Below, one piece after another: positions 1-22,456 of a DNA stretch of 64,000 bases. Origin of the DNA: an uncultured Alphaproteobacteria bacterium (GTDB taxonomy: Bacteria; Pseudomonadota; Alphaproteobacteria; MPNO01; DASWLB01). Each line of letters opens with the position of its first letter. The stretch's first letter is position 1. The notes under the pieces are model-generated. The model had not been told where the DNA came from. It did not search any database and saw only the letters and a program-made list of their open reading frames with translations. A program made the translations under genes and the position numbers. Location: NCBI GenBank assembly GCA_963775315.1, contig CAVZIN010000007.1:841193-905192 (forward strand). Reading direction: 5' to 3'.

Positions 1-583
1 GGGTGTCGAAATAGAACCCCATGATGAGGTCGAGACCCCATTCGGGCAGCGCGTCGCGGAACACCGGGAACATCGGGTGCTCGACCACCGGCATCTTCAG
101 CTCGTTGATCCGCGCCCAGAGCGGGTCGAACCGCGGATCGGACGGCGTGACCCCGCCGGCGTTAGAGCCCATGGCGACCCCGCACACCTCGGCCGCGTCG
201 TGCAGCCGGTCGAGTTCCTTCACCGACGCCTCGATGTCGGCGAGCGGCAGGGTCACCAGGGCGCGGGTGCGGTCGGGCCGCTTCTTCACCATCGCGATCA
301 GCTCGTCGTTCACCTTGCGGGCGAGATCGGGCTGCTGGCTCGCCGGGAACGGGTTGAGCGACGGCGCCGACAGCGAGATCAGGTGCATGTCGACACCCTT
401 CTTGTCCATGTCGTGCAGCCGGTGGTCGGGCTCCAACCAGCGCGTGTCGATGCGCTCCACCCGCTTCCCCTCGCGCTCGATGAAATGGAAGTTGCCCTCG
501 GTGCCCGCCTTGGCGCCGGGCAGCTTCTCGGCCGCCTCCAGGAACGCTCGCGAGATGATGTGGGTGTGCGAATCGATCTTCAT
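1..583 (-). CDS. Amidohydrolase-2 family protein (decarboxylase/hydratase-like), 5' part only; the 3' end runs off the window
   Basis: Reverse-strand translation from the ATG (revcomp of cat at 581-583) gives MKIDSHTHIISRAFLEAAEKL... with the HTH metal motif. It is a paralog of the gene at 616-1584, has a GGGGAAAC RBS, and is open to the window edge. Confidence 0.6.
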   Translation of the reverse strand, partial: MKIDSHTHIISRAFLEAAEKLPGAKAGTEGNFHFIEREGKRVERIDTRWLEPDHRLHDMDKKGVDMHLISLSAPSLNPFPASQQPDLARKVNDELIAMVKKRPDRTRALVTLPLADIEASVKELDRLHDAAEVCGVAMGSNAGGVTPSDPRFDPLWARINELKMPVVEHPMFPVFRDALPEWGLDLIMGFYFDT

Positions 584-615
584 GGACGTTTCCCCGATGG
601 TTGTTGGTGCCCGCG

Positions 616-1584
616 TCAGTTCAACCGGAACACCCGGGCCGCATTGTCGCCGACGATCTTGGCCTTTTCCTCGGCGTCGATCTCCAGCCCCTCGACATGG
701 CCGGGCCCGGCGTCGACGAATGGGTAGTCGGTGCCGAACATCAGATGGTCGGGTCCGACGATTGTGCGCGCCTCCATCAATGCCGGGGCGAAGAACGAGC
801 AGGTGTCGTAGTAGAGGTTCTTGGCGTAGGCGCTGAATGGCTTGGTGATGTACGCCGGCGTGATGTCGGGGCTGCGCGCCGACGACCGGTCGAGCCGGCT
901 GAGCGCGGTGAACAGGCCGGAGCCGGTATGCGCCACCAGGAACGGAAAGTCGGGGTAGCGCTCAAAGATGCCGTTCTGGATCAGCCGCGTGACCATGAGC
1001 TGGGTGTCGAACCAGAACCCGAGGATCAGCGACAGATCGTGGTCGTTCATCTGCGAGCCGAAAGGCGGATGCATCGGGTGCTCCACCACGGCGATCTTGC
1101 GTTCGTTGATCCGCTTCCACACCGGCTCGAAGCGCGGGTCGGAGAGCGGCACGCCGTCGACGTTCGAACCGATCGCGAGCCCGCAGACCTCCTTCTCGCC
1201 GGAGACACGGTCGAGCTCCTTGAGCGCGGCGTCGATATCGCCGAGCGGCAGCGACGGCAGGGCGCGCAGCCGGTCCGGCCGCTTCCGCACCGCGGCGAGC
1301 GTCTCGTCGTTCACGCGTTTGGCGATCTCGGCCTGCTCGGACGCAGGGAAGACGTAGAGGTTGGGCGTCGAAAGGGACAGGAGCCGCATGTCGATGCCGC
1401 GCTTGTCCATGTCACGGACGCAGTGGTCCGGGTCGAGCCACGCCTCGTTGCACGACACCACCCGCACTCCACCGCGCTCGTAGGCCGTGCCGAAATGGTC
1501 GGGCGTCAAGGTCATGCCGGGCACGGCCGCCATCCGGTCGTGATAGGCACGGGACATGTAGTGGGCGTGCGTGTCGATCTTCAC
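616..1584 (-). CDS. Amidohydrolase-2 family metal-dependent hydrolase/decarboxylase (ACMSD/PicC/LigW/IDCase-like)
   Basis: The 616..1851 ORF contains VKIDTHAHY preceded by a GGGGGAAG RBS, so a GTG start at 1584 is more likely. It has TIM-barrel amidohydrolase_2 motifs (HAH, FGTDYP) and is a tandem paralog of the upstream gene. Confidence 0.85.
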   Translation of the reverse strand: MKIDTHAHYMSRAYHDRMAAVPGMTLTPDHFGTAYERGGVRVVSCNEAWLDPDHCVRDMDKRGIDMRLLSLSTPNLYVFPASEQAEIAKRVNDETLAAVRKRPDRLRALPSLPLGDIDAALKELDRVSGEKEVCGLAIGSNVDGVPLSDPRFEPVWKRINERKIAVVEHPMHPPFGSQMNDHDLSLILGFWFDTQLMVTRLIQNGIFERYPDFPFLVAHTGSGLFTALSRLDRSSARSPDITPAYITKPFSAYAKNLYYDTCSFFAPALMEARTIVGPDHLMFGTDYPFVDAGPGHVEGLEIDAEEKAKIVGDNAARVFRLN

Positions 1585-1786
1585 GGCGCTTCCCCCGGTC
1601 TCGTTGGTTTTATGGCGTTCACTATAGGAGGGGCGCGAGCGCCGGTCCATGAAACGCGGCGAACGGGGCGCGGCAGCATATTGTTTATCAGTCAACAATT
1701 TGCTATCCAACGGTCCGGAGCGGTTGCCGGCCCGGTGGGCCGGCGCCAGCTCGACTCCAGGTCTGGATTTCCGCGGAAGGACCGGC

Positions 1787-2266
1787 ATGAAGACGCTGCT
1801 CACCCTCACCGTGAACGGCCGCGAGCGCACCGACGGCGTAGCGACCAGCATGCTGCTGGTGGACTACCTCCGCGAGCATCTGGGGCTGACCGGCACCAAG
1901 ATCGGTTGCGACGGCGGCGAGTGCGGCGCCTGCACCGTGCTTGTGGATGGTGAGCCGCGCCATTCCTGCCTGACCCTCGCCGCGACAATGCAGGGGCGGT
2001 CGGTCGAGACGGTGGAGCATCTGGCCCGCGACGGGCGGCTCGCCGCCATCCAGCGGGGCTTCCACGAGAAGCTCGGCGCCCAGTGCGGCTTCTGCACGCC
2101 GGGTTTCGTGATGGCGGCCGAGGGGCTCCTGCGCGAGAATCCGAACCCGAGCGAGGAAGATATTCGCGCGGGGCTCGCCTCGAACATCTGTCGCTGCACC
2201 GGCTACATCAAGATCATCGAGGCGGTGCAGGACGCCGCCCGCGAGCTGCGGGAGAGCGCGGCATGA
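1787..2266 (+). CDS. Molybdenum hydroxylase small subunit, (2Fe-2S)-binding (CoxS/XdhC-type)
   Basis: [13 protein letters not shown]..., two Cys clusters ([11 protein letters not shown] and CGFCTPG...CRCTGY), and position as first gene of an S-L-M operon. Confidence 0.9.
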
Positions 2267-2287
2267 GGTTCGCGACCCCCATCCCCG

Positions 2288-2354
2288 CCCTCCTCCTGCA
2301 AGGGGGAGGGGGCGAGCGCCGATACAACGCGTCCCTCCCCCTGCAAGGGGGAGG
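2288..2354 (+). repeat. Two tandem GC-rich stem-loops (CCCTCC(T/C)CC-TGCAA-GGGGGAGG) in the spacer between the small and large molybdenum hydroxylase subunit genes
   Basis: Copy 1 lies at 2288-2312 and copy 2 at 2332-2354. Both have the same TGCAA loop and sit in a 130-bp spacer, REP-like. Confidence 0.6.
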
Positions 2355-2396
2355 ACAGGAGGGGGTCGGCACTGGCGGGATTCGGGAGCAACTCGC

Positions 2397-4748
2397 ATGA
2401 GCACCATTCTCGAGCGCGGCGGGGCGGCCCCGGCGCCGGCCGAATCGATTGGCGTCCGGACGCCGCTGGTGGACGGGCCGGAGAAGGTCGCCGGCAAGGC
2501 GATGTACGCCGCCGACTTCGTGACCCCGGACACCCTGACCGGCCGCATCCTCCGCAGCCCGCATGCCCACGCGCGCATCCTGTCGGTCGACGTCTCGGCC
2601 GCGCGGGCGCTGTCCGGCGTGAAGGCAGTGGTGACGGGCGAGGATTGCGCCGCCAATTACGGCGTATTGCCGATCGCCATGAACGAATGGGCGCTGGCGC
2701 GCGGCAAGACCCGCTATCGCGGCGAGCCGATCGCAGCCGTCGCCGCCGTCGATGCCGAGACGGCGAACCGCGCCCTCGGCCTCATCGAGGTCGCGTACGA
2801 GGTGCTGCCCGCCTACTTCAAGGCGAAGGACGCCCGCGCCGAAGGGGCAATCCAGCTCCATGACGAGAAGCCGGGCAACATCGAGCGCGAGGTGCATTTC
2901 GAGCTCGGCGATCTCGCCAAGGGCTTCGCCGAGGCGGATTTGGTGCGCGAGGCGGAGTTCGACTGCGCCGAAGTGTGCCAGGTGCAGTCCGAACCGCACG
3001 CAGCCTTCGCCGAGTACGACGCGCTGCGCAACCGGCTGACGGTGCGCGCCTCGACCCAGGTGCCGTACTACGTGCATCTGATGCTTGCCCGCACGCTGGG
3101 CATGGACCGCTCGCGCATCCGGGTCATCAAGCCGCAGGTCGGCGGCGGGTTCGGCTGTCGCACCGAGACGCTGCAGATCGAGCTGATCGCGGCGCTGCTC
3201 GCCCGCGCGGCGAAGGGCACGGTACGCATCGTCGCCTCGCGCGAGGAGACCTTCATTACCCATCGCGGCCGGCCGGAGACGCAGAGCCGGATCAAGATCG
3301 GGCTCCGCAAGGACGGCAGGATCACCGCGGTCGAGTTCGAGACGGTGCAGCGCGGCGGGGCCTATTCGGGTTACGGCATCGTCACCATCATCTATGCCGG
3401 CTCGATGCTGTACGCGCTCTACGACATCCGGGCCGCGAAGTACGACGGCTACCGCGTGCTCACCAACACGCCGGTAAACGGTGCGTTCCGCGGCCACGGC
3501 ACGGTGAACACGCGCTTCGCCTTCGAGAATCTCTTGGACCAGATGGCGCACGAGATGGGGCTCGATCCCTTCGCCGTGCGGCGCGCGAACCTCCTGAAGG
3601 CGCCGACCGTCACCCAGAACGACATGATGGTAAACTCCTACGGATTGCCGGAGTGCCTGGACTGGGTGGAGCAGGCGTCGGGCTGGCGCGAGCGCAAGGG
3701 CAAGATGGACAAGTGGCGCGGGCTCGGCATGGCCTGCTCGCACTACATCTCCGGCGCGTCGAAGCCGAAGCACTGGACCAACGAGCCGCACGCGACCGTC
3801 AATCTCAAGCTCGATTTCGACGGGGCGGTGACGCTGCTGACCGGCGCATCTGACATCGGCCAGGGCTCGACCACCGTGCTGACCCAATGCGCCGCCGAGG
3901 TGCTCGGCATCCCGATCGACCGCATCCGCGCCGTGGTCAACGATTCCGCGCTGACGCCGAAAGACAACGGGTCCTATTCCTCGCGCGTCACCTTCATGGT
4001 GGGGAACGCCGCGATCGACGCGGCGAAGAACCTCAAGACCGTGCTGATCGAGGCCGCGGCCCGCAAGCTCGACGTGAAGCCCGAGGACGTCGAATGCCTG
4101 GGCGAGCTCTACCGCGCCGGCACGCAGGACGAGGGGCTCACCTTCGACGAGGTCGTGATGGCGGCGCTCGAGGAGACCGGAACGCTGACCGTGAAGGGCA
4201 AGTTCTCCACCATCCCCGGTAGCTGGGGCACCAAGAAATATCGTGGCGGCGCCATCGGCGGCACGATGGCCTATTCCTACGCCGCCCAGGTCGTCGAGTT
4301 GTCGGTCGACCCGGAAACCTGCGAGATCAAGGTCGAGAAGGTCTGGGTCGCGCACGATTGTGGCAAGGCGCTGAACCCCTTGTCCGTGGAAGGACAGGTG
4401 CAGGGCTCGGTGTGGATGGGGATGGGCCAGGCGCTGACCGAGGAGACGCGGTATCACCAGGGGCTCGGCATCACCAACTCGATGCTCGACTACCGCGTGC
4501 CGACCATCGTGGAATCGCCGCCGATCGAGGTGAAGATCGTCGAGGCGAACGATCCATATGGGCCATTCGGCGCCAAGGAGGCGGGCGAAGGCTCGCTCGC
4601 GGGCTTCATTCCGGCGCTGGCCGCCGCGATCGCCGACGCGACCGGCGTGCGGCCGAATGTGCTGCCGATTACGCCCGACCGGCTGATGGAAATGTTGGAG
4701 AAGCGCGAGCGGTTCGGCGGCGGCGCCGCCGACGAGGTCGAGGAGTAG
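2397..4748 (+). CDS. Molybdenum hydroxylase large subunit, molybdopterin-binding (xanthine dehydrogenase/aldehyde oxidase family; substrate unknown)
   Basis: 783 aa with typical family blocks ([10 protein letters not shown], dimerisation and MoCo domains). It lacks the CO-dehydrogenase VAYRCSFR loop, so it is a heterocycle or aldehyde hydroxylase rather than a CODH. Confidence 0.9.
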
Positions 4749-4775
4749 CGGTCGAGCGTTCGGCCCTCGTAGTTC

Positions 4776-4812
4776 GACAGGCTCACCATGATGGCCCCAC
4801 CCTGAGCCTGTC
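4776..4812 (+). repeat. Perfect 10-bp inverted repeat (GACAGGCTCA-N17-TGAGCCTGTC) in the spacer between the large and medium subunit genes
   Basis: Seen directly in the sequence; located in a 107-bp spacer. Confidence 0.55.
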
Positions 4813-4855
4813 GAAGGGCGAGGCCCGACGAAAAGAACCAGGGTTGCGGTAGAAC

Positions 4856-5830
4856 ATGGAATTCATGCCCGATTTTGCCCTTCACCGTCCCGCGACGGTG
4901 GACGAGGCGGTGAAGCTCCGCGCGGCCGAGGCGGGTTCGCGCTTCTGCGCCGGCGGCACCGACATGCTGGTGAACGTCCGGCGCGGGATCGAGAGCCCGA
5001 CGGCGCTGATCGACCTCACCGGCGTCCCCGGCCTCGGCGAGATTGCCGAGACGGACGACGGGCTCCTCATCGGCGCGGCGGTGACGCTCGACGCGCTCGC
5101 CCGCCACCCTGCGGTGCGGCGCGACTGTCCTGCCGTCGCCGAGGCGGCGGGCGAGGTCGCCGGGCCCACCCACCGGCGCTACGGCACGGTCGGCGGCAAC
5201 CTCTGCCTCGACACCCGTTGCCTGTTCTACAACCAGTCGGAATGGTGGCGGAAATCCAACGACTACTGCCTGAAGCGGAACGGCACGGTGTGCCACGTCG
5301 CGCCGGGTGGCAAGCGCTGCTTCGCGGCCTTCTCGGGCGACGTCGCGCCGGCGATGCTGGTCTCGGGCGCCGAGATCGAGATCGCGGGGCCGGCGGGCAC
5401 GCGGCGCGTCCCGCTCACGAGCCTCTACCGCAATGACGGGATGAACCACTTGACGCTTGCCCCGGGGGAGATGGTGAGCGTCGTGCATCTGCCGAAGCCG
5501 GTTACGGGCGCGCGGACAGGCTATGCCAAGGCGCGGGTGCGCGGCTCGATCGACTTTCCGCTGGCGGGCGCTGCCGTGCGGCTTCGCATGGACGGCGCCA
5601 ACGTCGCCGAGCTCGCGGTCGCGCTGACCGGCGTCAACCCATACCCGCATCTGGTCCGGGGGCTCGAGCCATTCGTCGGCAAGCCGCTCGACGACGCGGC
5701 ACTCGACCGGCTGCGCGAGACGGTGCGCCGCCAGGCGAAACCCATGCGCACCACGACGGTGAAGCCTTGGTACCGCCGCCGCGTGGTCGGCGCACTCGCC
5801 CGCAAGCTCGCGGTGCGTCTCGCGGGCTGA
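4856..5830 (+). CDS. Molybdenum hydroxylase medium subunit, FAD-binding (CoxM-type)
   Basis: 324 aa, GGTDM FAD-binding motif, CO dehydrogenase flavoprotein-like, third gene of the S-L-M operon. Confidence 0.9.
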   Translation: MEFMPDFALHRPATVDEAVKLRAAEAGSRFCAGGTDMLVNVRRGIESPTALIDLTGVPGLGEIAETDDGLLIGAAVTLDALARHPAVRRDCPAVAEAAGEVAGPTHRRYGTVGGNLCLDTRCLFYNQSEWWRKSNDYCLKRNGTVCHVAPGGKRCFAAFSGDVAPAMLVSGAEIEIAGPAGTRRVPLTSLYRNDGMNHLTLAPGEMVSVVHLPKPVTGARTGYAKARVRGSIDFPLAGAAVRLRMDGANVAELAVALTGVNPYPHLVRGLEPFVGKPLDDAALDRLRETVRRQAKPMRTTTVKPWYRRRVVGALARKLAVRLAG

Positions 5831-5858
5831 TAACATCCTCCCGACCGGGAGGGATTCC

Positions 5859-7124
5859 ATGGGCATGAACATCGCCGAGAAGATCCTGGCGCGCGCGGCC
5901 GGAACGGAGCGCGTCGTGCCGGGCGACATCGCCATCGTCGAGGTCGGTACCGCCGTCCTGATGGACATGAACTTCATGCCGGCGAGCTGGCGCGAGATCC
6001 TGAAGGTTCACGATCCGAAGCGCGTCGTCGTCGTGCTCGACCACATGGTCCCGGCGAACGAGCCGCAATCGGCCGGCGCCCACGCCAGGGCGCGCGAGTT
6101 CTGCGCCACGTTCGGCATCGAGCGGTTCCACGACGTCGGGCGCAACCAGGGCATCAGCCACGTCGTCGTCGCCGACAACGCCTACGCGCTGCCCGGCACG
6201 GTGATGGTGAACCCGGATTCGCACACCTGCGGCGGCGGCGCGTTCAACTGCGCCGCGCGCGGCGTCGGGCTGCCCGAGACGACCTTCGCCGTCACTACCG
6301 GCAAGAGCTGGTTCCGCGTCGGCGAGACGGTGCGCTACGAGCTGCACGGCAGGCTTTCGCCCGGCGTCTCGGCCAAGGACGTGTTCCTCCACATCGCGGG
6401 CAAGTACGGCGTGCACGTCAACCAGAACGTCGAGTTCGGCGGGCCGGGCATGTCATCGCTCAGCCTCAACGCGCGCCGCACCATCGCCATCATGGGCGCC
6501 GAGCTCTCGGCCGAGTTCGTGATCTTCGAGCCGGACGATGCGATGCTCGACTACGTCAAGGCGCGCAACCCGGCGCCGTTCGAGGCGACCTGGCCGGACG
6601 CGGACGCCACCTACGCCGACCGCCGGACGCTCGACCTCGCTTCGATCGAGCCGCTTGTCGCGCTGCCCGACGCGATGCTCAACAACGCGGTGCCGGTGGG
6701 CGAGGCGGCGGGCGAGCGGATCGACCAGGCCTTCATCGGCTCCTGCGCCAACGGCACGCTCGACGATTTCGCGATCGCGGCGAGGGTGCTGGCGGGTCAG
6801 CGCGTCGCGCCGGGCGTCCGGCTGATCGTCACGCCCGGATCGCAGGCGATCTATCGCGAGGCGTTAGCGAAGGGCTACGTCGCGACCATCGCCGAGGCCG
6901 GCGCGGTCGTGACGCCCGCCACCTGCGGCGCCTGCGTCGGCGGCCACATGGGCGTGCTCGGGCCGGGCGAGATATGCATCACCGCCTCGACCCGCAACTT
7001 CAAGGGCAGGATGGGCGACCCCACGGCGCGCATCTATATGGCCTCGCCGGCGACGGTCGCGGCCTCGGCTATCGCCGGGCACATCGCCAGTGCCGCCGAG
7101 TATTTCGCGGGAGATTTGTCGTGA
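5859..7124 (+). CDS. Aconitase-family hydro-lyase large subunit (LeuC/homoaconitase/maleate-hydratase-like)
   Basis: MNIAEKILARA..., aconitase catalytic-domain motifs and three conserved Cys (ICITASTRNF), short LeuC type of 421 aa. Confidence 0.85.
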   Translation: MGMNIAEKILARAAGTERVVPGDIAIVEVGTAVLMDMNFMPASWREILKVHDPKRVVVVLDHMVPANEPQSAGAHARAREFCATFGIERFHDVGRNQGISHVVVADNAYALPGTVMVNPDSHTCGGGAFNCAARGVGLPETTFAVTTGKSWFRVGETVRYELHGRLSPGVSAKDVFLHIAGKYGVHVNQNVEFGGPGMSSLSLNARRTIAIMGAELSAEFVIFEPDDAMLDYVKARNPAPFEATWPDADATYADRRTLDLASIEPLVALPDAMLNNAVPVGEAAGERIDQAFIGSCANGTLDDFAIAARVLAGQRVAPGVRLIVTPGSQAIYREALAKGYVATIAEAGAVVTPATCGACVGGHMGVLGPGEICITASTRNFKGRMGDPTARIYMASPATVAASAIAGHIASAAEYFAGDLS

Positions 7125-7618
7125 TCGGCGCTCGCCTCTGGAAGTTCGGCGACGACATCAACACCGACCTCCTGCTGCCCGGCTCGGCGATGATGAAGCC
7201 GGAGCCGGAGCAGGCGCGCGCCGTGTTCGCCGCCAACCGGCCGGGCTGGGTGGACGAGATGAAGCCGGGCGACGCGCTGGTCGCCGGGCGCAATTTTGGC
7301 ATGGGCTCGAATCGTCCGGCCTCGCGCTCGCTCCGTAATCTGGGGGTCGCCTTCCTGCTCGCGGAATCGATCAACGGGCTCTTCTTCCGCAACAGCGTGA
7401 ACTACGGCCTCGTCGCGCTCGAATGCCCGGGCTGCTATGCGGCGTTCGAGGAGGGCGACATGGCCGAGCTCGACCTCGCGGCCTGGACGGTGCGCAACGC
7501 GCGCACCGGCGCGGTGCTGACGCCCGACCCGATTCCGGAGCGGCTGCTGACCCTGATGCAGGGCGGCGGCATCTACCCGCTGATGGAGCGCGAGGGGCTG
7601 GTCGCCCCGCGCCGTTGA
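7120..7618 (+). CDS. Aconitase-family hydro-lyase small subunit (LeuD-like swivel domain)
   Basis: The GTG start overlaps the stop of the large subunit (GTGA). Sequence IGARLWKFGDDINTDLLLPG... is a classic LeuD N-terminus; 166 aa. Confidence 0.85.
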
Positions 7619-7637
7619 CGCCGAAATCGGCCTCGCG

Positions 7638-7859
7638 CTACGCCCGCGGGATCAGGTGGAGCATCATCAGCTCGTCGGGGGTGAGGGAACGGCGCGCGCC
7701 GTCCCCCGGATAGACCTCCCACGCGTCGCGCTCGACGGTCTGCCAATCGAACCCGACGATCAGGGCGAGAGCGATGCGCGCCAGCGTCCGCCTCAGCCCC
7801 GCCTCGCGCGCGGGCGCGACGTAGCCCGGCGGGTCGTAGCGCTTCAGCACCCCGCTCAT
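7638..7859 (-). CDS. Small hypothetical protein (73 aa) co-transcribed downstream of the Rieske oxygenase pair
   Basis: ATGA start/stop overlap with the upstream Rieske gene, strong GC3 codon bias, and it fills the convergent gap. No recognisable domain. Confidence 0.4.
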   Translation of the reverse strand: MSGVLKRYDPPGYVAPAREAGLRRTLARIALALIVGFDWQTVERDAWEVYPGDGARRSLTPDELMMLHLIPRA

Positions 7860-8881
7860 GACGCAAGCCTCGATTCGGGCTCGCCCTCGGCGGCGAGCAG
7901 GTCCTGGAGCATGCGGCGCATGCGCAGCCCCGGCGCGTCGCTCATCATGTGGAACTCCAGCGGATCCTTGTTGTCGAGCGGCACGTCGAATTCGGTCGAC
8001 TCCAGGATCTCCTTGTCTTCCAGCGTGACCTGCCGGTCGAAGGCGATGATGTCGGCGGCCTTCGCCTCTTCCTCGGTGTCGCTGCGGTAGCAGAACTGGA
8101 CCACCATCGCGCGGTCGTCGGCCATCGGCGTCGCCGCGGTGATGATGGTGTGCTGGAGCCCGTGCGGATAGGTGATGCCCAGCCGGCGCACGAACGGCAT
8201 GTACCACGTGGAGTGGTTCTTCCGCACCGTCTCCTCGGAATTCGCCCCGCCGAGATATTTCTGCGAGACGGCGCCGCGGTTCATGACCTTGTGCTCGGCG
8301 AAGATGTGGAAGCCATAGTCGAACGGCTCGATCTCCACTTTGGCGGGTACCGGCTGCCGGTCGTTGCCGAAACTTGCGCGGTGGGTGAAGGCGATGTGCG
8401 CGGCGTCGAACGAGTTCTCCATCAGCCGCAGCGGCGCGATCTTCCACTCCTCGTAGAACTGGTCGATGCGCCGCAGCCCGTCGGTCTCGTCCGGGAAGTC
8501 CGGAAGCGGGGCCAGCGGCTCGTCGAGCGCGACCCACACATGGCCGTAACGGACCGCCGTGCGGTAGGAGGGCACGCGGAGCTCCGCCGGCACCTTTTTC
8601 GGATCGGGCTGCTGCGGGATGGTGACGCAGCGTCCGGTGCCGTCGTACTGCCAGCCGTGATAACCGCAGGTGGCGAGCCCTTCGGCGAGATAGCCCTTGG
8701 AGATTTTCGCCGTGCGATGACAGCACCGGTCACGGATGCAGGCGACCGAGCCGTCGGCTTCGCGCCACAGCACGATGTTCTCGCCCAGCAGGGTGAACGG
8801 CACCAGCCCGGCGTCGAGATGGCCTTCGCGGAGCACCGGGTACCAGAAGCGCCGCAGGCTCTTTTGCATCGTGGTCAGCAT
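7856..8881 (-). CDS. Alpha-only Rieske non-heme iron oxygenase (NdmA/NdmB-like N-demethylase/hydroxylase family)
   Basis: Rieske ligands CCHRTAKIS...CGYHGWQY, mononuclear Fe motif ENSFDAAHIAFTH, an N-terminal RRFWYPV block resembling NdmA RHFWHPV, and an ATG at 8881 with an AAAGGA RBS. Confidence 0.85.
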   Translation of the reverse strand: MLTTMQKSLRRFWYPVLREGHLDAGLVPFTLLGENIVLWREADGSVACIRDRCCHRTAKISKGYLAEGLATCGYHGWQYDGTGRCVTIPQQPDPKKVPAELRVPSYRTAVRYGHVWVALDEPLAPLPDFPDETDGLRRIDQFYEEWKIAPLRLMENSFDAAHIAFTHRASFGNDRQPVPAKVEIEPFDYGFHIFAEHKVMNRGAVSQKYLGGANSEETVRKNHSTWYMPFVRRLGITYPHGLQHTIITAATPMADDRAMVVQFCYRSDTEEEAKAADIIAFDRQVTLEDKEILESTEFDVPLDNKDPLEFHMMSDAPGLRMRRMLQDLLAAEGEPESRLAS

Positions 8882-8897
8882 CACTCGGTCCTTTCGT

Positions 8898-9950
8898 TCA
8901 GGCCGCAGCCGTCGTGTCGCGTTCGTCGGGTGTGCCGGTCGTGCGCGCCTCGCGCTCGCCGTGCGCCGCAAGCAGCTTCATCAGCCGCTTGCGCATTTCG
9001 AGACCGGGCCGGTCGGACCACATGTGCAGCTCCTCGCGGCGGCGCAGATCGAGTGGCACGTCCCAGTCGCACGCCTCCAGGATGGCGCGGTCCTCGTGCG
9101 TCACCTGGCGGTCGAAGGCGATGACACCCTCGGCCGGCGCGTCCGCCTCGGTGTCGTTGCGCACCGCGAACTGGGTCAGGATCGAGCGGCGGTCGTCGAT
9201 CGGCGCGGTCAGGGTGATCAGGATGTGTACGAGCCCGTTCGGGTAGGTGATCTTCATCTTGCGGCTGAACGGCATCCACCACGTCTTTTCGTAGTTGCGG
9301 ACCGTCCGGTCGCCGGATTCGCGCAGGTTTCGCTTCTGGATGTCCGGGTTCTGCACCGGCACGATGGTCCGCATGACGAACCCGTCATCCGTGTCGGTGA
9401 TGCTCATCGGCTGCGGCTCGGGCTCCTCGATGATCCCGAACGACGCGCGGTGAACGAAGGAGAAGTGCGCGTTGTCGAATGAGTTCTCCATGATGCGGAG
9501 GCCTGGCGCATCCCACTCCTCCCAGAACTCGTGAAACTGCCGGAAGCCGGTCATGGCGGCCTCGGGCAGCGCCGGAATGTCGTACAGCGGTTCCTCCAGG
9601 GCGACCCAGACATAGCCGTAGCGCTCGGCGCAGTGGTAAGACTTGACCCGGGCGCCCGAGGGCACCGCGCCGTTCCGCGCCTGGGGCACCTTCACGCACA
9701 GCCCGTCCGGGCGGTAGGTCCAGCCGTGATAGCCGCAGACGATGTTCCCGTCTTCGCACCAGCCGTGGCTCAGCTTGGCGGTGCGGTGGCAGCAGCGGTC
9801 GGCCACGGCGGCGGGCGCGCCGTCCGGCCCATTCCACAGCACGATGTCCTCGCCCAGCAGGCGGAACGGCCGCGGCGCGTCGCCAAGCTCTGACATTGGC
9901 ATCAGCGCGTACCAGAACCGGCGAAAAACGGGCTGCTGCGTCACGAGCAT
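8898..9950 (-). CDS. Alpha-only Rieske non-heme iron oxygenase, paralog 2 (NdmA/NdmB-like)
   Basis: CCHRTAKLSHG...CGYHGWTY and ENSFDNAHFSFVH motifs, AGGAGG RBS before the ATG at 9950, and a sigma-54 promoter about 40 bp upstream. Confidence 0.85.
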   Translation of the reverse strand: MLVTQQPVFRRFWYALMPMSELGDAPRPFRLLGEDIVLWNGPDGAPAAVADRCCHRTAKLSHGWCEDGNIVCGYHGWTYRPDGLCVKVPQARNGAVPSGARVKSYHCAERYGYVWVALEEPLYDIPALPEAAMTGFRQFHEFWEEWDAPGLRIMENSFDNAHFSFVHRASFGIIEEPEPQPMSITDTDDGFVMRTIVPVQNPDIQKRNLRESGDRTVRNYEKTWWMPFSRKMKITYPNGLVHILITLTAPIDDRRSILTQFAVRNDTEADAPAEGVIAFDRQVTHEDRAILEACDWDVPLDLRRREELHMWSDRPGLEMRKRLMKLLAAHGEREARTTGTPDERDTTAAA

Positions 9951-9989
9951 GTGGCGATCCCTCCTGTGGCCGAGGCGTCGCCTCTTGCC

Positions 9990-10006
9990 TTGCAAGTTCC
10001 GTGCCA
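9990..10006 (-). promoter_or_regulatory. Sigma-54 (RpoN) promoter for the Rieske oxygenase operon
   Basis: Minus strand reads TGGCACGGAACTTGCAA, a GG-N10-GC match to TGGCACG-N4-TTGCW, about 40 nt upstream of the start at 9950. Confidence 0.7.
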
Positions 10007-10060
10007 CTCCGAAGCCGCCGTGTTTTCAGGCGTCCCGATCCACGGATCGGAGGCTGTTGC

Positions 10061-10984
10061 CTAGCCCGTGGGCAGCGCTGCCCGAAACGGATGCGTCCGC
10101 ATCCAATGTCGTGCGACGTCGACGCGGCGCGCGATCCATACGTCGCGATGGCCGAGTACGTGATCGAGGAAGCGCTCGACACCGGCGGCGCGCGCGGCAT
10201 GGCCGCTGACCCGGAGGTGGAGCGAGAGGGTCATCGCCCGCGGCCGCCGCGCCGACTCCCGGTACAGGACGTCGAACGCATCGGTCATGTAGGTGACGAA
10301 GTCGCTGGACGTGGCGAACCAGCCGCGGCCGTACTTGTTGTCGTTGTGACTGAAGGTGTGGGGCAGGACCAGGAACGGCTTGCCGCGATCGGTCGTCCAG
10401 AACGGCAGGTCGTCGGCGTAGGAGTTGCAGTCGTAGAGGAAGCCGCCCTCTTCGATCAGCAGCCGTCGGGTGTTGAGCGACGGCCCGTAGCGGCAATACC
10501 AGCCGAGGGGCCGTTCACCCATTGTGCGGGTGAGCGAGGCGACGGCGCCGACGATGTGGTCGCGCTCCGCCGCCTCGTCCATGTTGAACTGCTCGACCCA
10601 GCGCCAGCCGTGGCAGAGCACTTCCCACCCCGCCTCTCGGATCGCCTGGGCAGCGTCGGGATTGCGCTCGAGGGCGAGCGCCGCACCGCTTACCGTCACG
10701 GGCAAGTCGCGCTCACGGAACAGATCGTGCAGCCGCCAGAATCCGACCCGGCTTCCGTATTCGAACAGGGACTCGGCGGCGAGGTCGCGCCCCTTGACGC
10801 CGAGGTCCGGGGCGCCGGCGTCGGTCATCGTGGCCTCCGACCTGCCGTCGCCGTCGGGCACCGAGTACTCCGACCCCTCCTCGTAATTCAGCACCAGGTT
10901 GAACGCCATGCGGGCGCCGTTGGGCCAGCACGGGTCGGGCGGATTGCGCCCGTACCCGACCATGTCGCGCGGATAGTCGGTCAT
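10061..10984 (-). CDS. Divergent PuuE-type allantoinase / polysaccharide deacetylase-family cyclic-ureide hydrolase
   Basis: MTDYPRDMVGYGRNPPDP...NYEEG...FEYGSRVGFWRL resembles PuuE, but the active-site region differs from the canonical copy at 23390. ATGA overlap with the allA stop. Confidence 0.8.
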   Translation of the reverse strand: MTDYPRDMVGYGRNPPDPCWPNGARMAFNLVLNYEEGSEYSVPDGDGRSEATMTDAGAPDLGVKGRDLAAESLFEYGSRVGFWRLHDLFRERDLPVTVSGAALALERNPDAAQAIREAGWEVLCHGWRWVEQFNMDEAAERDHIVGAVASLTRTMGERPLGWYCRYGPSLNTRRLLIEEGGFLYDCNSYADDLPFWTTDRGKPFLVLPHTFSHNDNKYGRGWFATSSDFVTYMTDAFDVLYRESARRPRAMTLSLHLRVSGHAARAAGVERFLDHVLGHRDVWIARRVDVARHWMRTHPFRAALPTG

Positions 10985-11481
10985 GCGGCGATTTCCACGC
11001 GGAGCCCCAGCCGCCCTTTCAGGGCCGCCGACTGGTGGTCGGTCCGGTTGGTGTCGGCGAGCTCGAGATTGAGGAAGTCCATGCAGGGCGCACGGAAATA
11101 AGGGCCCGCATGCCAGGTGCCGCAGTGGAGCTTCACGATGGCGGGTCCGACGATGGTGAAGGCGCGGAGCGTGCCGGGTTCGGGCAGCGCCTGTGGGTCG
11201 TCGAACGCCGCGGGTGGCGCCACCGCGAGGAACCATTCGAGCCCGAGGGCCGATCCCAGGCACTGCGTCACCTTCCGGTGTCGCGCCAGTGCCTCGAAGG
11301 CCAACCCGTGGTCGGGCACGCGCATGATGTAGAGCCGCGGCGTGCCGCCGAATTCCAGCCGCGCGTCCTCCGGACCGAACGGCGTGCCGTAGCCGGAGGG
11401 CGCGATCAGCTCGCCGAATGGCGCAAACGCGGCGGCGGTGATCGGCTCGGGCCGGAGGCGGATCAGGCGAGGTTCGATCAT
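10981..11481 (-). CDS. allA: Ureidoglycolate lyase (AllA family)
   Basis: 166 aa with the AllA-family PFG motif (EPITAAAFAPFGELI), consistent size and ureide-pathway context. Confidence 0.8.
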   Translation of the reverse strand: MIEPRLIRLRPEPITAAAFAPFGELIAPSGYGTPFGPEDARLEFGGTPRLYIMRVPDHGLAFEALARHRKVTQCLGSALGLEWFLAVAPPAAFDDPQALPEPGTLRAFTIVGPAIVKLHCGTWHAGPYFRAPCMDFLNLELADTNRTDHQSAALKGRLGLRVEIAA

Positions 11482-12734
11482 GACACGCGGTCCTTTGCGC
11501 GTGCCATGGCGAGGGGTGTGTCGGTATAGAGGCGGCGCAGCTTCGCCCGGTGGTCAGGCCCGTCCCGTCCGGCCGTCGCGCGCACCGGATCGGCGCCTTG
11601 CAGCAACGGCGCGCTCGCATCCCACGAGAAGCGGCTGACGAAGGCGATACGCTCGGCGCGGGCGGCCTCGAACGCGGCGGTGAAGGCGGGGGCGTCGAAC
11701 CTGTGGGCCGCCGCCTCCGCGAAGGACGTGAGGAGCGCGCACCCGTCCTCGATCGCCTGGGTCGCGCCCTGGCCGAGCGTGGGCGCCATGGCATGGCTGG
11801 CGTCGCCGAGGAACAGCACATGGCCGCTTGTGTCGCGGTAGGCGGCGTCGATTTCCTGCGCGCGCGACCAGTGCAGCGGGCCCTCGCACCGGGCCAGCGC
11901 GTCGATCAGCCACGCGCAGCTCGGATCGGGAGCGCCGGCGTGGGGGCGGTAGGCGGCGCAGAGACGGTTCCGGTCGGCGCAGCCTTCCGGCACCTCGCCA
12001 TTCGCGTCGGTCGGCAGGTTGCCGGACAGGTAGACCACCCCGTCCGCCAGACGGAAGGCGAGCAGGCGGTTCGGCCCGGTGTAGAACTGCTCGAGATCGT
12101 CGATCCCGCTCGCGTCGGCGTCGGGCAGCAGCAGCCGGAAGTTGGCGACGCCGAGGAAGCGGGTCGCCGGAGTGCCGAGAAGCCGCTCGCGGAGGGGCGA
12201 GTAGCGCCCGTCGGCGGCGATCAGCAGGTCGATCCCTTCAATCCGCTTGCGCGCGCCGGTCACGTCGTCGATCAGGGTGAAGGAGATCGCCCCGCGTCGG
12301 CGCCCGGGCGTGATGGCGACGTCCTCGATGCGGGCGCGGAACCGCGCGAGCCGGCGCAGCGGCGCGCGGATGGCACGATAGAGCTCCGACCAGCGGATAC
12401 GGATGCCGTCCGTTTCCGCAACCTCTTCAAGCGGGATGAAATAGAGCAGGCGCCCGCCCGAGAGCGCGGCGCGCCATTGCCGCCATGGCAGGCTCGCCGC
12501 CTGCAGGTCCCGCGCGAGGGCGGGGAGGGTCGCCGCCAGAGCGCCCATCGCATTCGGTCCGACATTCAGCCCGTTGCCGGCATGGTCGTGGTCGTCCGGC
12601 CCGACCTTTTCGACCGCGATCAGCTCGACGTCCGGCCGTCCGGCGAGTCCTGCCGCGACCACGCCGCCGGCGACGCCGAGGCCGATCACGGCGACGCGCA
12701 GCGGCAGGCGCGCATTCACGCTGGCATTCGGCAT
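11478..12734 (-). CDS. FAD-dependent monooxygenase (HpxO/TmuM-like urate-type hydroxylase candidate)
   Basis: N-terminal GxGxxG (RVAVIGLGVAGG), DG and GD(A/S)xH flavin monooxygenase motifs, operon with allA and puuE-like, sigma-54 promoter upstream. Confidence 0.8.
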   Translation of the reverse strand: MPNASVNARLPLRVAVIGLGVAGGVVAAGLAGRPDVELIAVEKVGPDDHDHAGNGLNVGPNAMGALAATLPALARDLQAASLPWRQWRAALSGGRLLYFIPLEEVAETDGIRIRWSELYRAIRAPLRRLARFRARIEDVAITPGRRRGAISFTLIDDVTGARKRIEGIDLLIAADGRYSPLRERLLGTPATRFLGVANFRLLLPDADASGIDDLEQFYTGPNRLLAFRLADGVVYLSGNLPTDANGEVPEGCADRNRLCAAYRPHAGAPDPSCAWLIDALARCEGPLHWSRAQEIDAAYRDTSGHVLFLGDASHAMAPTLGQGATQAIEDGCALLTSFAEAAAHRFDAPAFTAAFEAARAERIAFVSRFSWDASAPLLQGADPVRATAGRDGPDHRAKLRRLYTDTPLAMARAKDRVS

Positions 12735-12768
12735 GCTGGCAAACCCTCGACCATCCCAGCGCGAGGGA

Positions 12769-12784
12769 TGCAAATTCCGTGCCA
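12769..12784 (-). promoter_or_regulatory. Sigma-54 promoter for the FAD monooxygenase-allA-puuE-like operon
   Basis: Minus strand reads TGGCACGGAATTTGCA, about 35 nt upstream of the start at 12734. Confidence 0.7.
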
Positions 12785-12912
12785 CGCGGGTTCGCCCGGA
12801 AACCGGGCGGCCGGCCGGCGCCCTGTGCCCAGTGTTCGGGCAGGCTGCATATTCGCGCGCCATCGCTGGCCGCGCGGAACGGCCTTCGGAACGGATTCCG
12901 CCCTGGAAACGG

Positions 12913-12930
12913 TTGGCACGATTCTTGCGA
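12913..12930 (+). promoter_or_regulatory. Sigma-54 promoter for the isochorismatase-cupin-CocE operon
   Basis: TGGCACGATTCTTGCGA. The 22-mer GGTTGGCACGATTCTTGCGAGG is identical to the promoter at 20156-20177 on the opposite strand. Confidence 0.75.
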
Positions 12931-12940
12931 GGTGTGCCGC

Positions 12941-13720
12941 ATGGATGCTCGCGAAGATACGAAGCGATCGTTGGGCACGGCGCCCGCGAACCGCTGGCGG
13001 GTGGACGCGGCGGAAGTCGATCTCGTCCGGGCCCAGCCGGTGCCTCGCCCGGTGCGGATCGCCGCGACGCCGCAGAACCTGACGCTCGACCTTGCGCGCA
13101 CGGCGATCCTGGTGATCGACATGCAGAACGATTTCTGCCACCCGGACGGGTGGCTTGCCTCGATCGGCGTCGACGTGTCGCCGCTGCGCGCCCCGATCGC
13201 CCCGCTCGCGGGGCTCCTGCCGGCACTGCGCCAGGCCGGGGTGCCGGTGGTGTGGGTCAATTGGGGCAACCGGCCGGACCGGCTCAACCTCAGCCCGTCC
13301 TTGCTGCACGTCTACAAGCCGACCGGCGAGGGCGTCGGGCTCGGCGATACTCTGGTCAGCGGTGCGCACGTTCTTCAGAAGGGAAGCTGGTCGGCCGCCA
13401 TCGTCGACGACCTCGCGCAAGAGCCCGTCGACATCCATGTCGACAAGTACCGGATGAGTGGATTTTGGGACACGCCGCTCGATTCCATCCTACGCAATCT
13501 AGGAGTGGCGACCTTGCTGTTCGCCGGCGTCAATGCCGACCAGTGCGTACTCTGCTCGCTTCAGGACGCGAACTTCCTGGGACACGATTGTGTCCTCCTC
13601 GAAGACTGCACCGGGACGAGCTCGCCGAAGTTCTGCTTGGAGGCGACGCTCTACAATGTGCGCCAGTGCTTCGGCTTCGTCGCGGGGTCCGGGGCCTTGG
13701 TCGCGGCGTTGGCAAGATGA
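12941..13720 (+). CDS. Isochorismatase-family cysteine hydrolase (RutB / N-carbamoylsarcosine amidase / maleamate amidase-like)
   Basis: LVIDMQNDFCHPDGW and a C-terminal block YRMSGFWDTPLDSILRNLGV...GVNADQCVL close to RutB. GAGGTG RBS and a sigma-54 promoter 10-30 bp upstream. Confidence 0.85.
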   Translation: MDAREDTKRSLGTAPANRWRVDAAEVDLVRAQPVPRPVRIAATPQNLTLDLARTAILVIDMQNDFCHPDGWLASIGVDVSPLRAPIAPLAGLLPALRQAGVPVVWVNWGNRPDRLNLSPSLLHVYKPTGEGVGLGDTLVSGAHVLQKGSWSAAIVDDLAQEPVDIHVDKYRMSGFWDTPLDSILRNLGVATLLFAGVNADQCVLCSLQDANFLGHDCVLLEDCTGTSSPKFCLEATLYNVRQCFGFVAGSGALVAALAR

Positions 13721-14160
13721 AGGCGATCCTCAAGCATCCCGGCGAGCTGCGCGCGTTTCGCATCAGCCCGGGCGACACCAACTACCTCGCCTGCGTGTTC
13801 GACCCGGTCGAGCACGGCGAGGTCGGCTTCACCGCGGTGATCGAAATCTTCGAGCAGGGCGGGAAGACGCCGCCCAATACCCACCGCGCGGCGCACGAGA
13901 TGTTCCTGGTGCTGGAGGGCGAGGGGATCGCGACCTGCGACGGCCGCGCCGAGAAGGTACGGACGGGCGATGTGCTGTTGGTCCGGCCCGGCGCCGAACA
14001 CGTGGTCGAGAACACCGGGCCGGGGCGGCTCTACTGCTTCACCGTCATGGTGCCGGACGAGGAATTCGCGGCGCTGATCCGGGGCGGCATCCCGGTCGCG
14101 CTAGACGCCGCCGACCTCGCCGTCATCACCCGCGCACCGGGCTTCGCGCCGCATGGCTGA
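13717..14160 (+). CDS. Cupin-domain protein
   Basis: 147 aa single cupin (G(X)5HxH-like THRAAHEMFLVLEGEG ... PGAEH) with ATGA coupling to the upstream gene. Confidence 0.7.
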   Translation: MKAILKHPGELRAFRISPGDTNYLACVFDPVEHGEVGFTAVIEIFEQGGKTPPNTHRAAHEMFLVLEGEGIATCDGRAEKVRTGDVLLVRPGAEHVVENTGPGRLYCFTVMVPDEEFAALIRGGIPVALDAADLAVITRAPGFAPHG

Positions 14161-18516: not shown

Positions 18517-19304
18517 GATTGGCGCCCCATCGCATCGGTCAGCATCGCGGATACCTCGCGGCAGTAGTCGGCGTAGACGTTCGAGGTGCGGAATGCCTCG
18601 GTCCGGGGGTAGGGGGCGTCGATCTCGATCTCGCCCACGACGCGGCCCGGCCGCGCGGCCATCACGATGATGCGGCGCGAGAGGTAGACCGACTCGAAAA
18701 CGCTGTGGGTAACGAAGATCACCGTCCAGTCGTTGTCGCCCCAAAGCTCCAGCAGGTCGTTGTTGAGCTTGAAACGCGTGATTTCGTCGAGGGCGGCGAA
18801 GGGCTCGTCCATCAACAGGAGGCGCGGCTTCACGATCATGCCGCGCGCGATGGAGACGCGCATCTTCATGCCGCCCGAAAGCTCGCGCGGGTAGGAATTC
18901 TCGAAGGCGGAGAGCCCGACGCGCGCGATGGCCGCCTTCACATCCGGCGCGGCCTTCGTCCGCGAGACGCCCTCGAGGCGGAGGGGGAGGTAGACGTTCT
19001 CGAACACCGTGGCCCAGGGCATCAGGGTCGGCTCCTGGAACACGAAGCCCACTTCGCGCTCCGGGTTGCCGCCTGCGTCGTAGGACGAGGTGGGCCAGTC
19101 GACCGTGCCGGCGCTCACCCCGGACAGGCCCGAGATGAGCTTGAGTGCCGTCGACTTGCCGCAGCCAGACGGGCCCAGCAGGCTGACGAAATCGTGCTCG
19201 TGGATGTCGATGTCGAGCCCGCGCAGCGCAATCGTTCCATTTTCGAACGTCTTGGAGACGCCCTTGATGCTGACCAGCGGGCGATCGGCCGTGATTACCG
19301 CCAT
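18513..19304 (-). CDS. ABC transporter ATP-binding protein (NitT/TauT family)
   Basis: Walker A GPSGCGKST, signature LSGGMKMR, Walker B LLLMDEP, GGAGAAGG RBS. Confidence 0.9.
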   Translation of the reverse strand: MAVITADRPLVSIKGVSKTFENGTIALRGLDIDIHEHDFVSLLGPSGCGKSTALKLISGLSGVSAGTVDWPTSSYDAGGNPEREVGFVFQEPTLMPWATVFENVYLPLRLEGVSRTKAAPDVKAAIARVGLSAFENSYPRELSGGMKMRVSIARGMIVKPRLLLMDEPFAALDEITRFKLNNDLLELWGDNDWTVIFVTHSVFESVYLSRRIIVMAARPGRVVGEIEIDAPYPRTEAFRTSNVYADYCREVSAMLTDAMGRQS

Positions 19305-20128: not shown

Positions 20129-20157
20129 CGCATCCCTTCCCGGTCCCGCCCCATCCC

Positions 20158-22449: not shown

Positions 22450-22456
22450 GAGAGTG

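Follow-up and report, generated by a model that had tools for sequence, protein, structure and literature searches.

4-Hydroxybenzoyl-coenzyme A (CoA) reductase (4-HBCR) of Thauera aromatica turns 4-hydroxybenzoyl-CoA into benzoyl-CoA and works "backwards", with electrons from a low-potential donor passing through a [4Fe-4S] cluster, flavin adenine dinucleotide (FAD), and the [2Fe-2S] clusters to molybdenum. According to the literature, 4-HBCR is oxygen-sensitive, and the only other reductive dehydroxylase known in the xanthine oxidase family is the urolithin C dehydroxylase Ucdh, which shares ~33% identity with 4-HBCR, has no [4Fe-4S] loop, draws on NADH, and has as its substrate a phenol that is not bound to CoA. 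No other member of the family has the [4Fe-4S]-binding loop that marks the FAD subunit of 4-HBCR (PMC11760930). Here we describe the first 7618 nucleotides of a 64-kb stretch of DNA from an uncultured alphaproteobacterium (contig CAVZIN010000007.1; "the window" denotes this whole stretch), in which three genes for the small, large, and medium subunits (S, L, and M) of a molybdenum enzyme lie between divergent amidohydrolase genes and a LeuC/LeuD-like gene pair. Sequence comparison places S-L-M securely in the 4-HBCR family, as an hcrCAB-type operon. With moderate confidence, we further propose that the enzyme is a reductive dehydroxylase of 4-hydroxybenzoyl-CoA or a related p-hydroxyaroyl thioester, to which decarboxylases of the LigW/ACMSD class and a hydro-lyase of the HacAB/LeuCD type have been added in a narrow lineage. 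A preliminary description of the region had instead read it as a pathway in which a pyridine or pyrimidine carboxylate is hydroxylated by the molybdenum enzyme, the hydroxylated ring loses a carboxyl group through the amidohydrolases, and the LeuCD-like pair finally hydrates maleate.

Family of the molybdenum enzyme

When scored against the NCBIfam models for 4-HBCR, L reached 1184.9 bits with the alpha model (TIGR03194, equivalog cut-off 994.55) and M 432.5 bits with the beta model (TIGR03195, cut-off 404.55), while S, at 247 bits with the gamma model (TIGR03193, cut-off 257.8), fell 10 bits short. The top Protein Data Bank (PDB) match of all three subunits was 1RM6, the T. aromatica HcrCAB. 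L aligned to HcrA (1RM6_A) over its full length (residues 17-771, 1022 bits, ~62% identity), M aligned end to end with HcrB (1RM6_B, 321.5 bits), and S matched 1RM6_C over residues 1-152 with every cluster cysteine motif aligned (218.7 bits). The next-best PDB match of L was quinoline oxidoreductase at 292 bits, below which came 6-hydroxypseudooxynicotine dehydrogenase (Kdh, 242), PaoC (223), nicotinate dehydrogenase (Ndh, 197), and bovine xanthine dehydrogenase (XDH, 173), as well as CO dehydrogenase (CODH). Orthology to xanthine dehydrogenase, which the preliminary description had set as a refuting condition, was not found, as the XdhA models gave 531 and 506 bits against cut-offs of 780 and 916.

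S (1787-2266, forward strand; Pfam Fer2 and Fer2_2) is the HcrC-like gamma subunit with motifs for two [2Fe-2S] clusters, L (2397-4748, forward strand; Ald_Xan_dh_C, MoCoBD_1, and MoCoBD_2) is the HcrA-like, molybdopterin-binding catalytic alpha subunit, and M (4856-5830, forward strand; FAD_binding_5 and CO_deh_flav_C) is the HcrB-like, FAD-binding beta subunit. They are three separate genes in the gamma-alpha-beta order, which is also that of T. aromatica HcrCAB (1RM6/1SB3) and Rhodopseudomonas palustris HbaBCD. M, a protein of 324 residues, contains a cysteine insert of ~40 residues (GGNLCLDTRCLFYNQSEWWRKSNDYCLKRNGTVCHVAPGGKRC, about nt 5204-5320), and all five cysteines of the pattern GGNLCxDTRCxFYNQSEWWRxxNxYCLKxxGxxCHVxxxxxRC align between M and HcrB. 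The FAD_binding_5 match in M spans 210 protein residues for a profile of 170 positions; medium subunits without the Fe-S insert have about 280-300 residues. The features shared with HcrCAB are this [4Fe-4S] insert, both [2Fe-2S] motifs, GGGFG, the RGHG arginine, and the catalytic Glu motif. In its active-site region, L has NGAFRGHG, which is of the same type as GAMRGHG in HcrA, and no CODH loop. The preliminary description was thus right that the loop is missing, but its conclusion that the substrate is a heterocycle or aldehyde does not follow, since HcrA has the same type of site.

Because M carries the [4Fe-4S] insert and L is 62% identical to HcrA, we assign S-L-M as a new member of the known reductive dehydroxylase branch and not as a pyridine-ring hydroxylase of the PicA, NicB, or XDH kind. 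The hydroxylation of a pyridine or pyrimidine carboxylate drew its appeal from the surroundings: PicC and IDCase are decarboxylases of the Amidohydro_2 family, the amidohydrolases here match IDCase at up to 77 bits, the wider window is rich in genes for N-heterocycles and ureides, and the LeuCD-like pair falls outside the leucine-biosynthesis type. The enzyme itself argues otherwise, with 292, 242, and 197 bits to the N-heterocycle hydroxylases and 531 to XdhA (cut-off 780) as against 1022-1185 for HcrA. Moreover, when the other medium subunits matched in the PDB are aligned to M, among them those of quinoline oxidoreductase, nicotinate dehydrogenase, 6-hydroxypseudooxynicotine dehydrogenase, and CO dehydrogenase, the alignment falls into two stretches and skips residues ~118-162, where the insert is located. 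The module contains no ring-cleavage dioxygenase or maleate isomerase gene. The isochorismatase-family gene, previously taken for a maleamate amidase belonging to the unit, is not demonstrably one: its best NCBIfam matches were RutB (139.7 bits, cut-off 378) and BiuH (118 bits, cut-off 370), and it lies at 12971-13720, 5 kb from the LeuD-like gene and across a convergent Rieske operon, in another block with a cupin and a CocE/NonD hydrolase gene. We regard the pyridine or pyrimidine carboxylate pathway as very improbable.

The sequence matches to solved structures were by themselves decisive. A role of S-L-M in methylxanthine or caffeine metabolism, considered for the twin NdmA/B-like VanA-type Rieske genes at 7856-9950 together with a Cdh-like trio, was rejected on the HcrCAB evidence.

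In the enzyme encoded here, the alpha subunit binds the molybdenum cofactor, the gamma subunit the two [2Fe-2S] clusters, and the beta subunit FAD and the extra [4Fe-4S] cluster. Low-potential electrons would enter at the [4Fe-4S] cluster and travel via FAD and the [2Fe-2S] clusters to the molybdenum, which would strip the para-hydroxyl from 4-hydroxybenzoyl-CoA or an analog.

Genomic context of related enzymes and the choice of substrate

A scan of species genomes returned 585 relatives of L, and we sampled 84 loci in which the L protein is 66-83% identical to that of the window. All 84 come from alphaproteobacterial metagenome-assembled genomes (MAGs) of Rhodospirillales, Stellaceae, Xanthobacteraceae, Hyphomicrobiaceae, and Pseudolabrys, and the S-L-M trio is retained in essentially all of them, in very varied contexts. 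The neighboring genes were clustered without prior assumptions, and the cluster representatives were scored against NCBIfam. At about 30 of the 84 loci, which belong to one sub-clade, the trio adjoins a gene of the benzoate-CoA ligase family, one for BoxB/BoxC, or both. The ligase neighbor occurs at 28 loci (representative 734.8 bits, cut-off 375), and the BoxB and BoxC representatives scored 881.8 bits (cut-off 499) and 913.9 bits (cut-off 712), respectively. A 4HBT-like thioesterase gene flanks the trio at 32 loci, and a BzdR/BoxR-type regulator recurs at 13 of the box/ligase loci. This context is the expected setting of a genuine 4-HBCR that feeds the aerobic benzoyl-CoA pathway, and the box-linked operons imply a hybrid route from 4-hydroxybenzoate to benzoyl-CoA and into the aerobic box pathway. 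In the literature searched, we found no paper describing such a hybrid 4-hydroxybenzoate/box route and nothing relevant that links 4-HBCR with amidohydrolase, isopropylmalate, boxB, or aerobic hcrCAB.

The box/ligase loci, which are from Hyphomicrobiales and Xanthobacteraceae MAGs, include L022, L028, L031, L032, L034, L039, L042, L045, L046, L049, L052, L058, L067, and L071. An FNR-like gene and CysJ/CysI-like genes are also recurrent around the hcrCAB operons linked to box or ligase genes.

The box-embedded operons (L022-L071) have the same trio and the same M length as the window, and window L is 68-70% identical to the 30 box/ligase-linked L proteins. Identity to Thauera HcrA is 62% for window L and 58-59% for the 30 linked alphaproteobacterial homologs. 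At the 325 alignment columns that are invariant in these 30 proteins and Thauera, window L differs at 17, mostly conservatively, and the other L relatives differ at a median of 21. The notable changes in window L are P353V and C354N (Thauera numbering), which immediately precede the RGHG arginine motif, and also M191S, G456N, and G637C. In a neighbor-joining tree, window L falls into a second sub-clade with heterogeneous neighbors. A Pfam census of 140 neighbors in this clade returned enoyl-CoA hydratase, acyl-CoA dehydrogenase, 4HBT thioesterase, MarR, and POR/TPP/DUF6537 (2-oxoacid:ferredoxin-oxidoreductase-like) domains, themes that show CoA thioesters and low-potential electrons. Because recurrent ligase linkage is lacking in the window's clade, the identity of the substrate is read from sequence similarity; 4-hydroxybenzoyl-CoA or a close analog is most likely, uncorroborated by the context in this clade.

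Unlike HcrCAB and HbaBCD, the window operon has neither a CoA ligase nor a ferredoxin nor a benzoyl-CoA pathway gene next to it, and none of the genes carried by the box-embedded operons of the other sub-clade (4HBT-like thioesterase, benzoate-CoA ligase family, BoxB, BoxC, and BzdR/BoxR) adjoins it. No box genes were found in the 64-kb window. A benzoate-CoA-ligase-family gene is found 28 kb from the module and scored 353 bits with TIGR02262 (cut-off 375). In the route that we favor, the CoA ligase and the benzoyl-CoA pathway would be encoded elsewhere, and this gene, which lies with a MarR regulator at 34970-37119, is one candidate ligase. The two are grouped at 34970-41019 with a RidA-family gene and an NMT1-type ATP-binding cassette (ABC) transporter, and the group could be an aromatic-acid activation unit supplying the Hcr-type enzyme.

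With no CoA ligase inside the module, the Hcr-like enzyme might instead follow the logic of Ucdh and dehydroxylate a free phenolic acid of the hydroxy-isophthalate or hydroxy-terephthalate type, with the decarboxylases acting on poly-substituted aromatic acids. Ucdh (UcdCFO, the urolithin C 9-dehydroxylase of Enterocloster) belongs, as a reductive aryl dehydroxylase, to the superfamily of the window enzyme and shares its arrangement of three subunits; the substrate of Ucdh is a non-CoA phenol para to an ester. The P353V and C354N changes, close to the active-site arginine motif, would fit such a shift, as would the tripartite ATP-independent periplasmic (TRAP) carboxylate transporters and UbiD decarboxylases that are encoded near the module in four close relatives described below (L085, L086, L174, and L175). 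However, the window enzyme is far nearer to HcrCAB (62% identity of L to HcrA) than Ucdh is (33%), the invariant-site profile of L is typical for its clade, and no positive evidence points to any specific alternative substrate. We consider a free-acid substrate of this kind quite unlikely.

Flanking probable decarboxylases and hydro-lyase, and the extent of their linkage

Because the G+C content of the window is high (~67-72%), mechanical lists of its open reading frames (ORFs) are crowded; the real frames were chosen from the GC content at each codon position and from a gene call based on codon log-odds, with long ORFs as the training set. Together with Pfam, these methods bear out the gene content and layout that the preliminary description had given for 1-7618: tandem Amidohydro_2 genes are read divergently from S-L-M-LeuC-LeuD. 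The paralog next to S, here called alpha (616-1584, reverse strand), most likely starts at GTG 1584 and not at ATG 1650, as judged by alignment, and then has 322 residues as in all relatives. It matches PF04909 at full length (profile positions 1-289, 126.8 bits) and shows the metal-ligand motifs HxH, EHP-H, AHTG, and TDYP in the HxH, H, H, D pattern. The beta paralog (2-583, reverse strand) runs off the left edge of the window, so that its N-terminal 194 residues are seen; these cover profile positions 1-144 of 289 and include the DxHxH motif. Alpha shares 87-90% identity with the amidohydrolase next to S in L085 and L086, and beta shares 84-88% with the middle one of L085, L086, and L087. 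Close relatives have a third tandem amidohydrolase, and a third copy has probably been cut off by the window edge here. Identities among the three tandem paralogs are 50-57%, and throughout the lineage each is represented by its own orthologue.

The best solved relatives of the amidohydrolases are LigW (114 bits), ACMSD (108), and gamma-resorcylate decarboxylase (103), with IDCase lower and LigJ at 22 bits, and no NCBIfam equivalog was matched. Their placement in the decarboxylase branch, already made in the preliminary description, thus holds. They share with LigW, ACMSD, and gamma-resorcylate decarboxylase the PF04909 TIM-barrel family and the metal-ligand motifs but are distant from them (only ~100-115 bits) and differ in forming three tandem paralogs in the window's lineage. 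LigW decarboxylates 5-carboxyvanillate, the carboxyl being ortho to a ring hydroxyl, and the amidohydrolases are probably non-oxidative decarboxylases of the LigW/ACMSD class with ortho-hydroxy or amino-carboxy substrates. We propose that the two to three decarboxylases, sharing a divergent control region with the hcr-type operon, would remove a carboxyl ortho to the ring hydroxyl from carboxy-substituted hydroxybenzoates and so would supply an acid of the 4-hydroxybenzoate type. A LigI/LigJ-type lactonase or hydratase role, with the LeuCD-like pair acting on oxalomesaconate-like tricarboxylates, was rejected, as the decarboxylase branch matches far better.

Downstream of M, the LeuC-like large subunit (5859-7124, forward strand; Pfam Aconitase, 421 residues) and the LeuD-like small subunit (7121-7618, forward strand; Aconitase_C, 165 residues) are encoded. 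The LeuC-like protein scored 280 bits with PF00330, 429.5 with NF001614 (cut-off 385), and 408 with TIGR01343 (cut-off 385.7), matched PDB entries 4NQY/4KP1 at 309 bits, and has the cluster cysteine motifs GSCANG and TCGACVG with the three cluster cysteines. The LeuD-like protein matched PF00694, PDB entry 3VBA (117 bits), and TIGR02087 (108 bits, cut-off 108.95). With the leucine-biosynthesis models, the scores were 200 bits against a cut-off of 560 (TIGR00170, leuC), 22 against 116 (TIGR00171), 370 against 611 (TIGR02083), and 91 against 246 (TIGR02084), and the pair is also under the HacA equivalog cut-off. The small-subunit loop governs substrate specificity in enzymes of the isopropylmalate isomerase (IPMI)/homoaconitase type; the LeuD-like protein has PGSAMMK at this loop, as compared with PARYLVY in Methanocaldococcus jannaschii IPMI and PGRYNLT in Pyrococcus horikoshii. 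The pair, in which this loop differs (GSAMMK versus ARYLVY), resembles M. jannaschii LeuCD/HacAB in being a two-subunit Fe-S hydro-lyase of the aconitase family with the cluster cysteines.

In 80 metagenome loci centered on LeuC-like relatives of 61-84% identity, the LeuC/LeuD pair is kept at 76. The commonest neighbor, immediately upstream at 29 loci, is a protein of the phosphoenolpyruvate-mutase/isocitrate-lyase family that resembles PrpB (229 bits, below the cut-off), followed by Bug/TctC binding proteins; the usual partner elsewhere is thus a PrpB-like lyase and not leuA or leuB. These data place the pair, by sequence, among the aconitase-family [4Fe-4S] hydro-lyases of the HacA/archaeal-type IPMI family and outside housekeeping leucine biosynthesis, as the preliminary description had also held. 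Because the LeuD loop is altered, the scores are far below the leuC and leuD equivalogs, and the relatives elsewhere partner a PrpB-like lyase, the most reasonable reading is a catabolic hydratase of a substituted maleate or malate. The PrpB-like partner of the relatives is also why we suggest that the enzyme would hydrate a 2-substituted maleate or a malate-type acid. Dimethylmaleate hydratase DmdAB and the LeuCD-type maleate hydratase are functional analogs, and the earlier idea of a maleate-hydratase-like enzyme appears defensible.

The divergent control region between the alpha amidohydrolase and S (1585-1786, 202 nt) contains an AT-rich core at 1678-1708 (ATATTGTTTATCAGTCAACAATTTGCTATCC, with ATTGTT-N8-AACAAT). 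This core (ATATTGTTTAyyAGTCAACAwTTTGCTATC) and a CACTATAGG box show little or no change among the window, L085, L086, and L087, in contrast to the variable bases on either side, and a promoter scan returned a promoter-like TGGACC-17-TATAGT on the minus strand at 1649-1621. Together with the differing outer flanks described below, the conserved core speaks for joint regulation of the amidohydrolases and the hcr operon and, more weakly, of the LeuCD-like genes. The operon had been said to run into the LeuCD-like pair without a break. This is correct for M and LeuC, which are 28 nt apart, and for LeuC and LeuD, which overlap by 4 nt, but not for S-L and L-M, between which lie spacers of 130 nt (2267-2396) and 107 nt (4749-4855). 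The S-L spacer contains two copies of a CCCTCC..TGCAA..GGGGGAGG hairpin (2284-2310 and 2333-2359), and the L-M spacer contains a 26-nt inverted repeat (4760-4785 / 4803-4828). L085 lacks both spacers, with S and L overlapping by 4 nt and an L-M gap of 2 nt, and the palindromes are small insertions inside the operon. They are absent elsewhere in the window and were not classed as a genome-wide repetitive extragenic palindromic (REP) family. An Rfam search of 1-10500 at a permissive E-value gave a chance-level microRNA match on the S-L hairpins only and no molybdenum cofactor or other riboswitch.

The combination of these genes is not a widely conserved unit. Within 10 kb of the 84 L loci there is no homolog of LeuC, LeuD, or the alpha amidohydrolase and only one weak match to beta (32%), and the 80 LeuC loci have no Hcr-type trio and no amidohydrolases of the window type. 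The amidohydrolases and S-L-M occur together in six contigs in which L is at least 93% identical, five of them with LeuCD, so that the combination is restricted to one genus-level lineage; the preliminary description had treated the pieces as one module, which does not hold beyond that lineage, and its statement that they match no described pathway stands. L085, L086, and L174 have three amidohydrolases and then S-L-M-LeuC-LeuD. L175 has the same layout as L085 with the L gene split: at 3999-6357, L consists of a 263-residue N-terminal and a 161-residue C-terminal piece with ~1 kb between them, and the amidohydrolases, S, M, and LeuCD are intact, which reflects either pseudogenization or an assembly problem. 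In L087, two amidohydrolases and S-L-M are present without LeuCD, and a PrpB-like gene lies 0.9 kb downstream. The outer flanks vary, with TRAP genes in L085, OmpA and Meth_synt_2 genes in L086 and L174, and Rieske genes in the window.

In L086, L174, and L175, genes for a UbiD-family decarboxylase (519-541 residues) and for Meth_synt_2-family proteins turn up repeatedly within 5-9 kb of the module, and they are also found near distant amidohydrolase homologs (L172), which hints at a wider neighborhood of aromatic-acid decarboxylation or demethylation.

This restricted distribution leaves room for a simple juxtaposition, in which three catabolic units (the hcrCAB-type operon, the decarboxylases, and the LeuCD-like pair) are independent of one another, serve no common pathway, and are chance neighbors, in one genus-level lineage, on a large island rich in genes for hydrolases and oxidoreductases. 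Each part is found apart from the others: S-L-M is a self-contained trio in varied contexts at 84 loci, none with homologs of the window's amidohydrolases or LeuCD, and the LeuCD-like pairs are never beside an Hcr-type enzyme at 80 loci. The more distant amidohydrolase homologs (51-59% identity) sit amid VanA-type Rieske oxygenase, extradiol dioxygenase, UbiD, TRAP transporter, and Meth_synt_2 genes, and the molybdenum enzymes near them are only 26-30% identical to window L. The absence of LeuCD from L087 and the M-LeuC gap of 150-160 nt in L085 and L086 are in line with this. On the other hand, the block order and the divergent control region are kept in six contigs while the outer flanks differ, and M and LeuC lie only 27-28 nt apart, without a terminator-like site, in the window, L174, and L175, which implies that they are co-transcribed. 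A terminator scan of the window gave no site in the M-LeuC gap or downstream of LeuD, and one intra-coding site was disregarded. The hydro-lyase pair is probably co-transcribed with S-L-M, and we give independent juxtaposition a minor, though real, chance.

Several observations weigh against the pathway that we favor, in which an Hcr-type dehydroxylase of a p-hydroxyaroyl thioester works with the added decarboxylases and hydro-lyase. No CoA ligase, thioesterase, Box, or Bcr gene is in or beside the module, clustering of the neighbors gave no recurrent ligase linkage in the window's L clade, and two invariant residues beside the active-site arginine motif are altered (P353V and C354N). The surrounding genes for Rieske oxygenases, a flavin monooxygenase, and urate oxidase indicate an aerobe, and 4-HBCR is oxygen-sensitive; in this, too, the window host, apparently an aerobic alphaproteobacterium with relatives among Rhodospirillales and Stellaceae MAGs, differs from the source of HcrCAB. 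Decarboxylase and LeuCD-like genes are not known companions of hcr, they never occur with S-L-M outside the narrow lineage, and shared ancestry alone could explain the synteny. Within that lineage, L087 lacks LeuCD and the L gene of L175 is split. Family membership, cofactor motifs, gene order, and the lineage-restricted synteny are observed, and it is the substrate, the direction of the reaction, and the metabolic coupling of the three parts that we infer.

Neighboring genes and wider meaning

Beyond the module, two tandem VanA-type Rieske oxygenase genes (342 and 350 residues, of the NdmA/B or VanA size class) and then an ORF of 73 residues without a family match lie on the reverse strand at 7638-9950, and no reductase gene adjoins the tandem pair. 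A third VanA_C gene, at 20109-21239 on the forward strand, has no Rieske domain in its N-terminal 177 residues. At 10061-15820, a second PuuE-like gene (355.7 bits, cut-off 424.6), a weakly ureidoglycolate-lyase-like gene, and a FAD monooxygenase gene on the minus strand face the RutB/BiuH-like isochorismatase, cupin, and CocE/NonD hydrolase genes, and together they look like an uncharacterized block for degrading an N-heterocycle or amide. One run on the reverse strand at 17200-20119 comprises a cytosine-deaminase-family amidohydrolase (NF005759, 602.6 bits, cut-off 403), an ABC ATPase, and a creatininase-family gene, which suggests catabolism of creatinine/N-methylhydantoin or of the pyrimidine type. 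A purine/ureide cluster follows at 23390-27449, with a PuuE-like allantoinase, an M20 amidohydrolase resembling allantoate amidohydrolase, an OHCU decarboxylase, and a PuuD-type membrane urate oxidase (Urate_ox_N), and upstream of it is an NMT1-type ABC transporter (21388-23377). At 46684-49360, valS is apparently split over two frames, with tRNA-synt_1 positions 3-244 in 46684-48315 and positions 298-414 with the anticodon and C-terminal domains in 48056-49360. The cause may be a frameshift or an indel in the assembly; in the latter case, other oddities such as the Rieske-less VanA_C gene may be artifacts as well.

A bolder extension of these results is that the block is an undescribed route of aerobic Rhodospirillales for poly-substituted (carboxylated and hydroxylated) aromatic acids, in which three LigW/ACMSD-class decarboxylases and a HacAB-like hydro-lyase would accompany an HcrCAB-type dehydroxylase whose substrate is not 4-hydroxybenzoyl-CoA and is possibly a free acid. 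We think this unlikely; if true, it would add a third class to the substrates that the xanthine oxidase family reductively dehydroxylates, in an organism that respires oxygen. The module as such matters specifically only if the decarboxylases and the hydro-lyase are metabolically coupled to the Hcr-type enzyme.

The analysis corrects a plausible functional call, as a CoxSLM-like trio beside Amidohydro_2 and LeuCD-like genes mimics N-heterocycle hydroxylation. It also reveals that Hcr-type operons are common in aerobic Alphaproteobacteria, some inside box clusters and many without CoA-pathway neighbors. There, an enzyme reported to be oxygen-sensitive and reliant on low-potential electrons would have to operate in aerobes, and its members may not all have 4-hydroxybenzoyl-CoA as the substrate.

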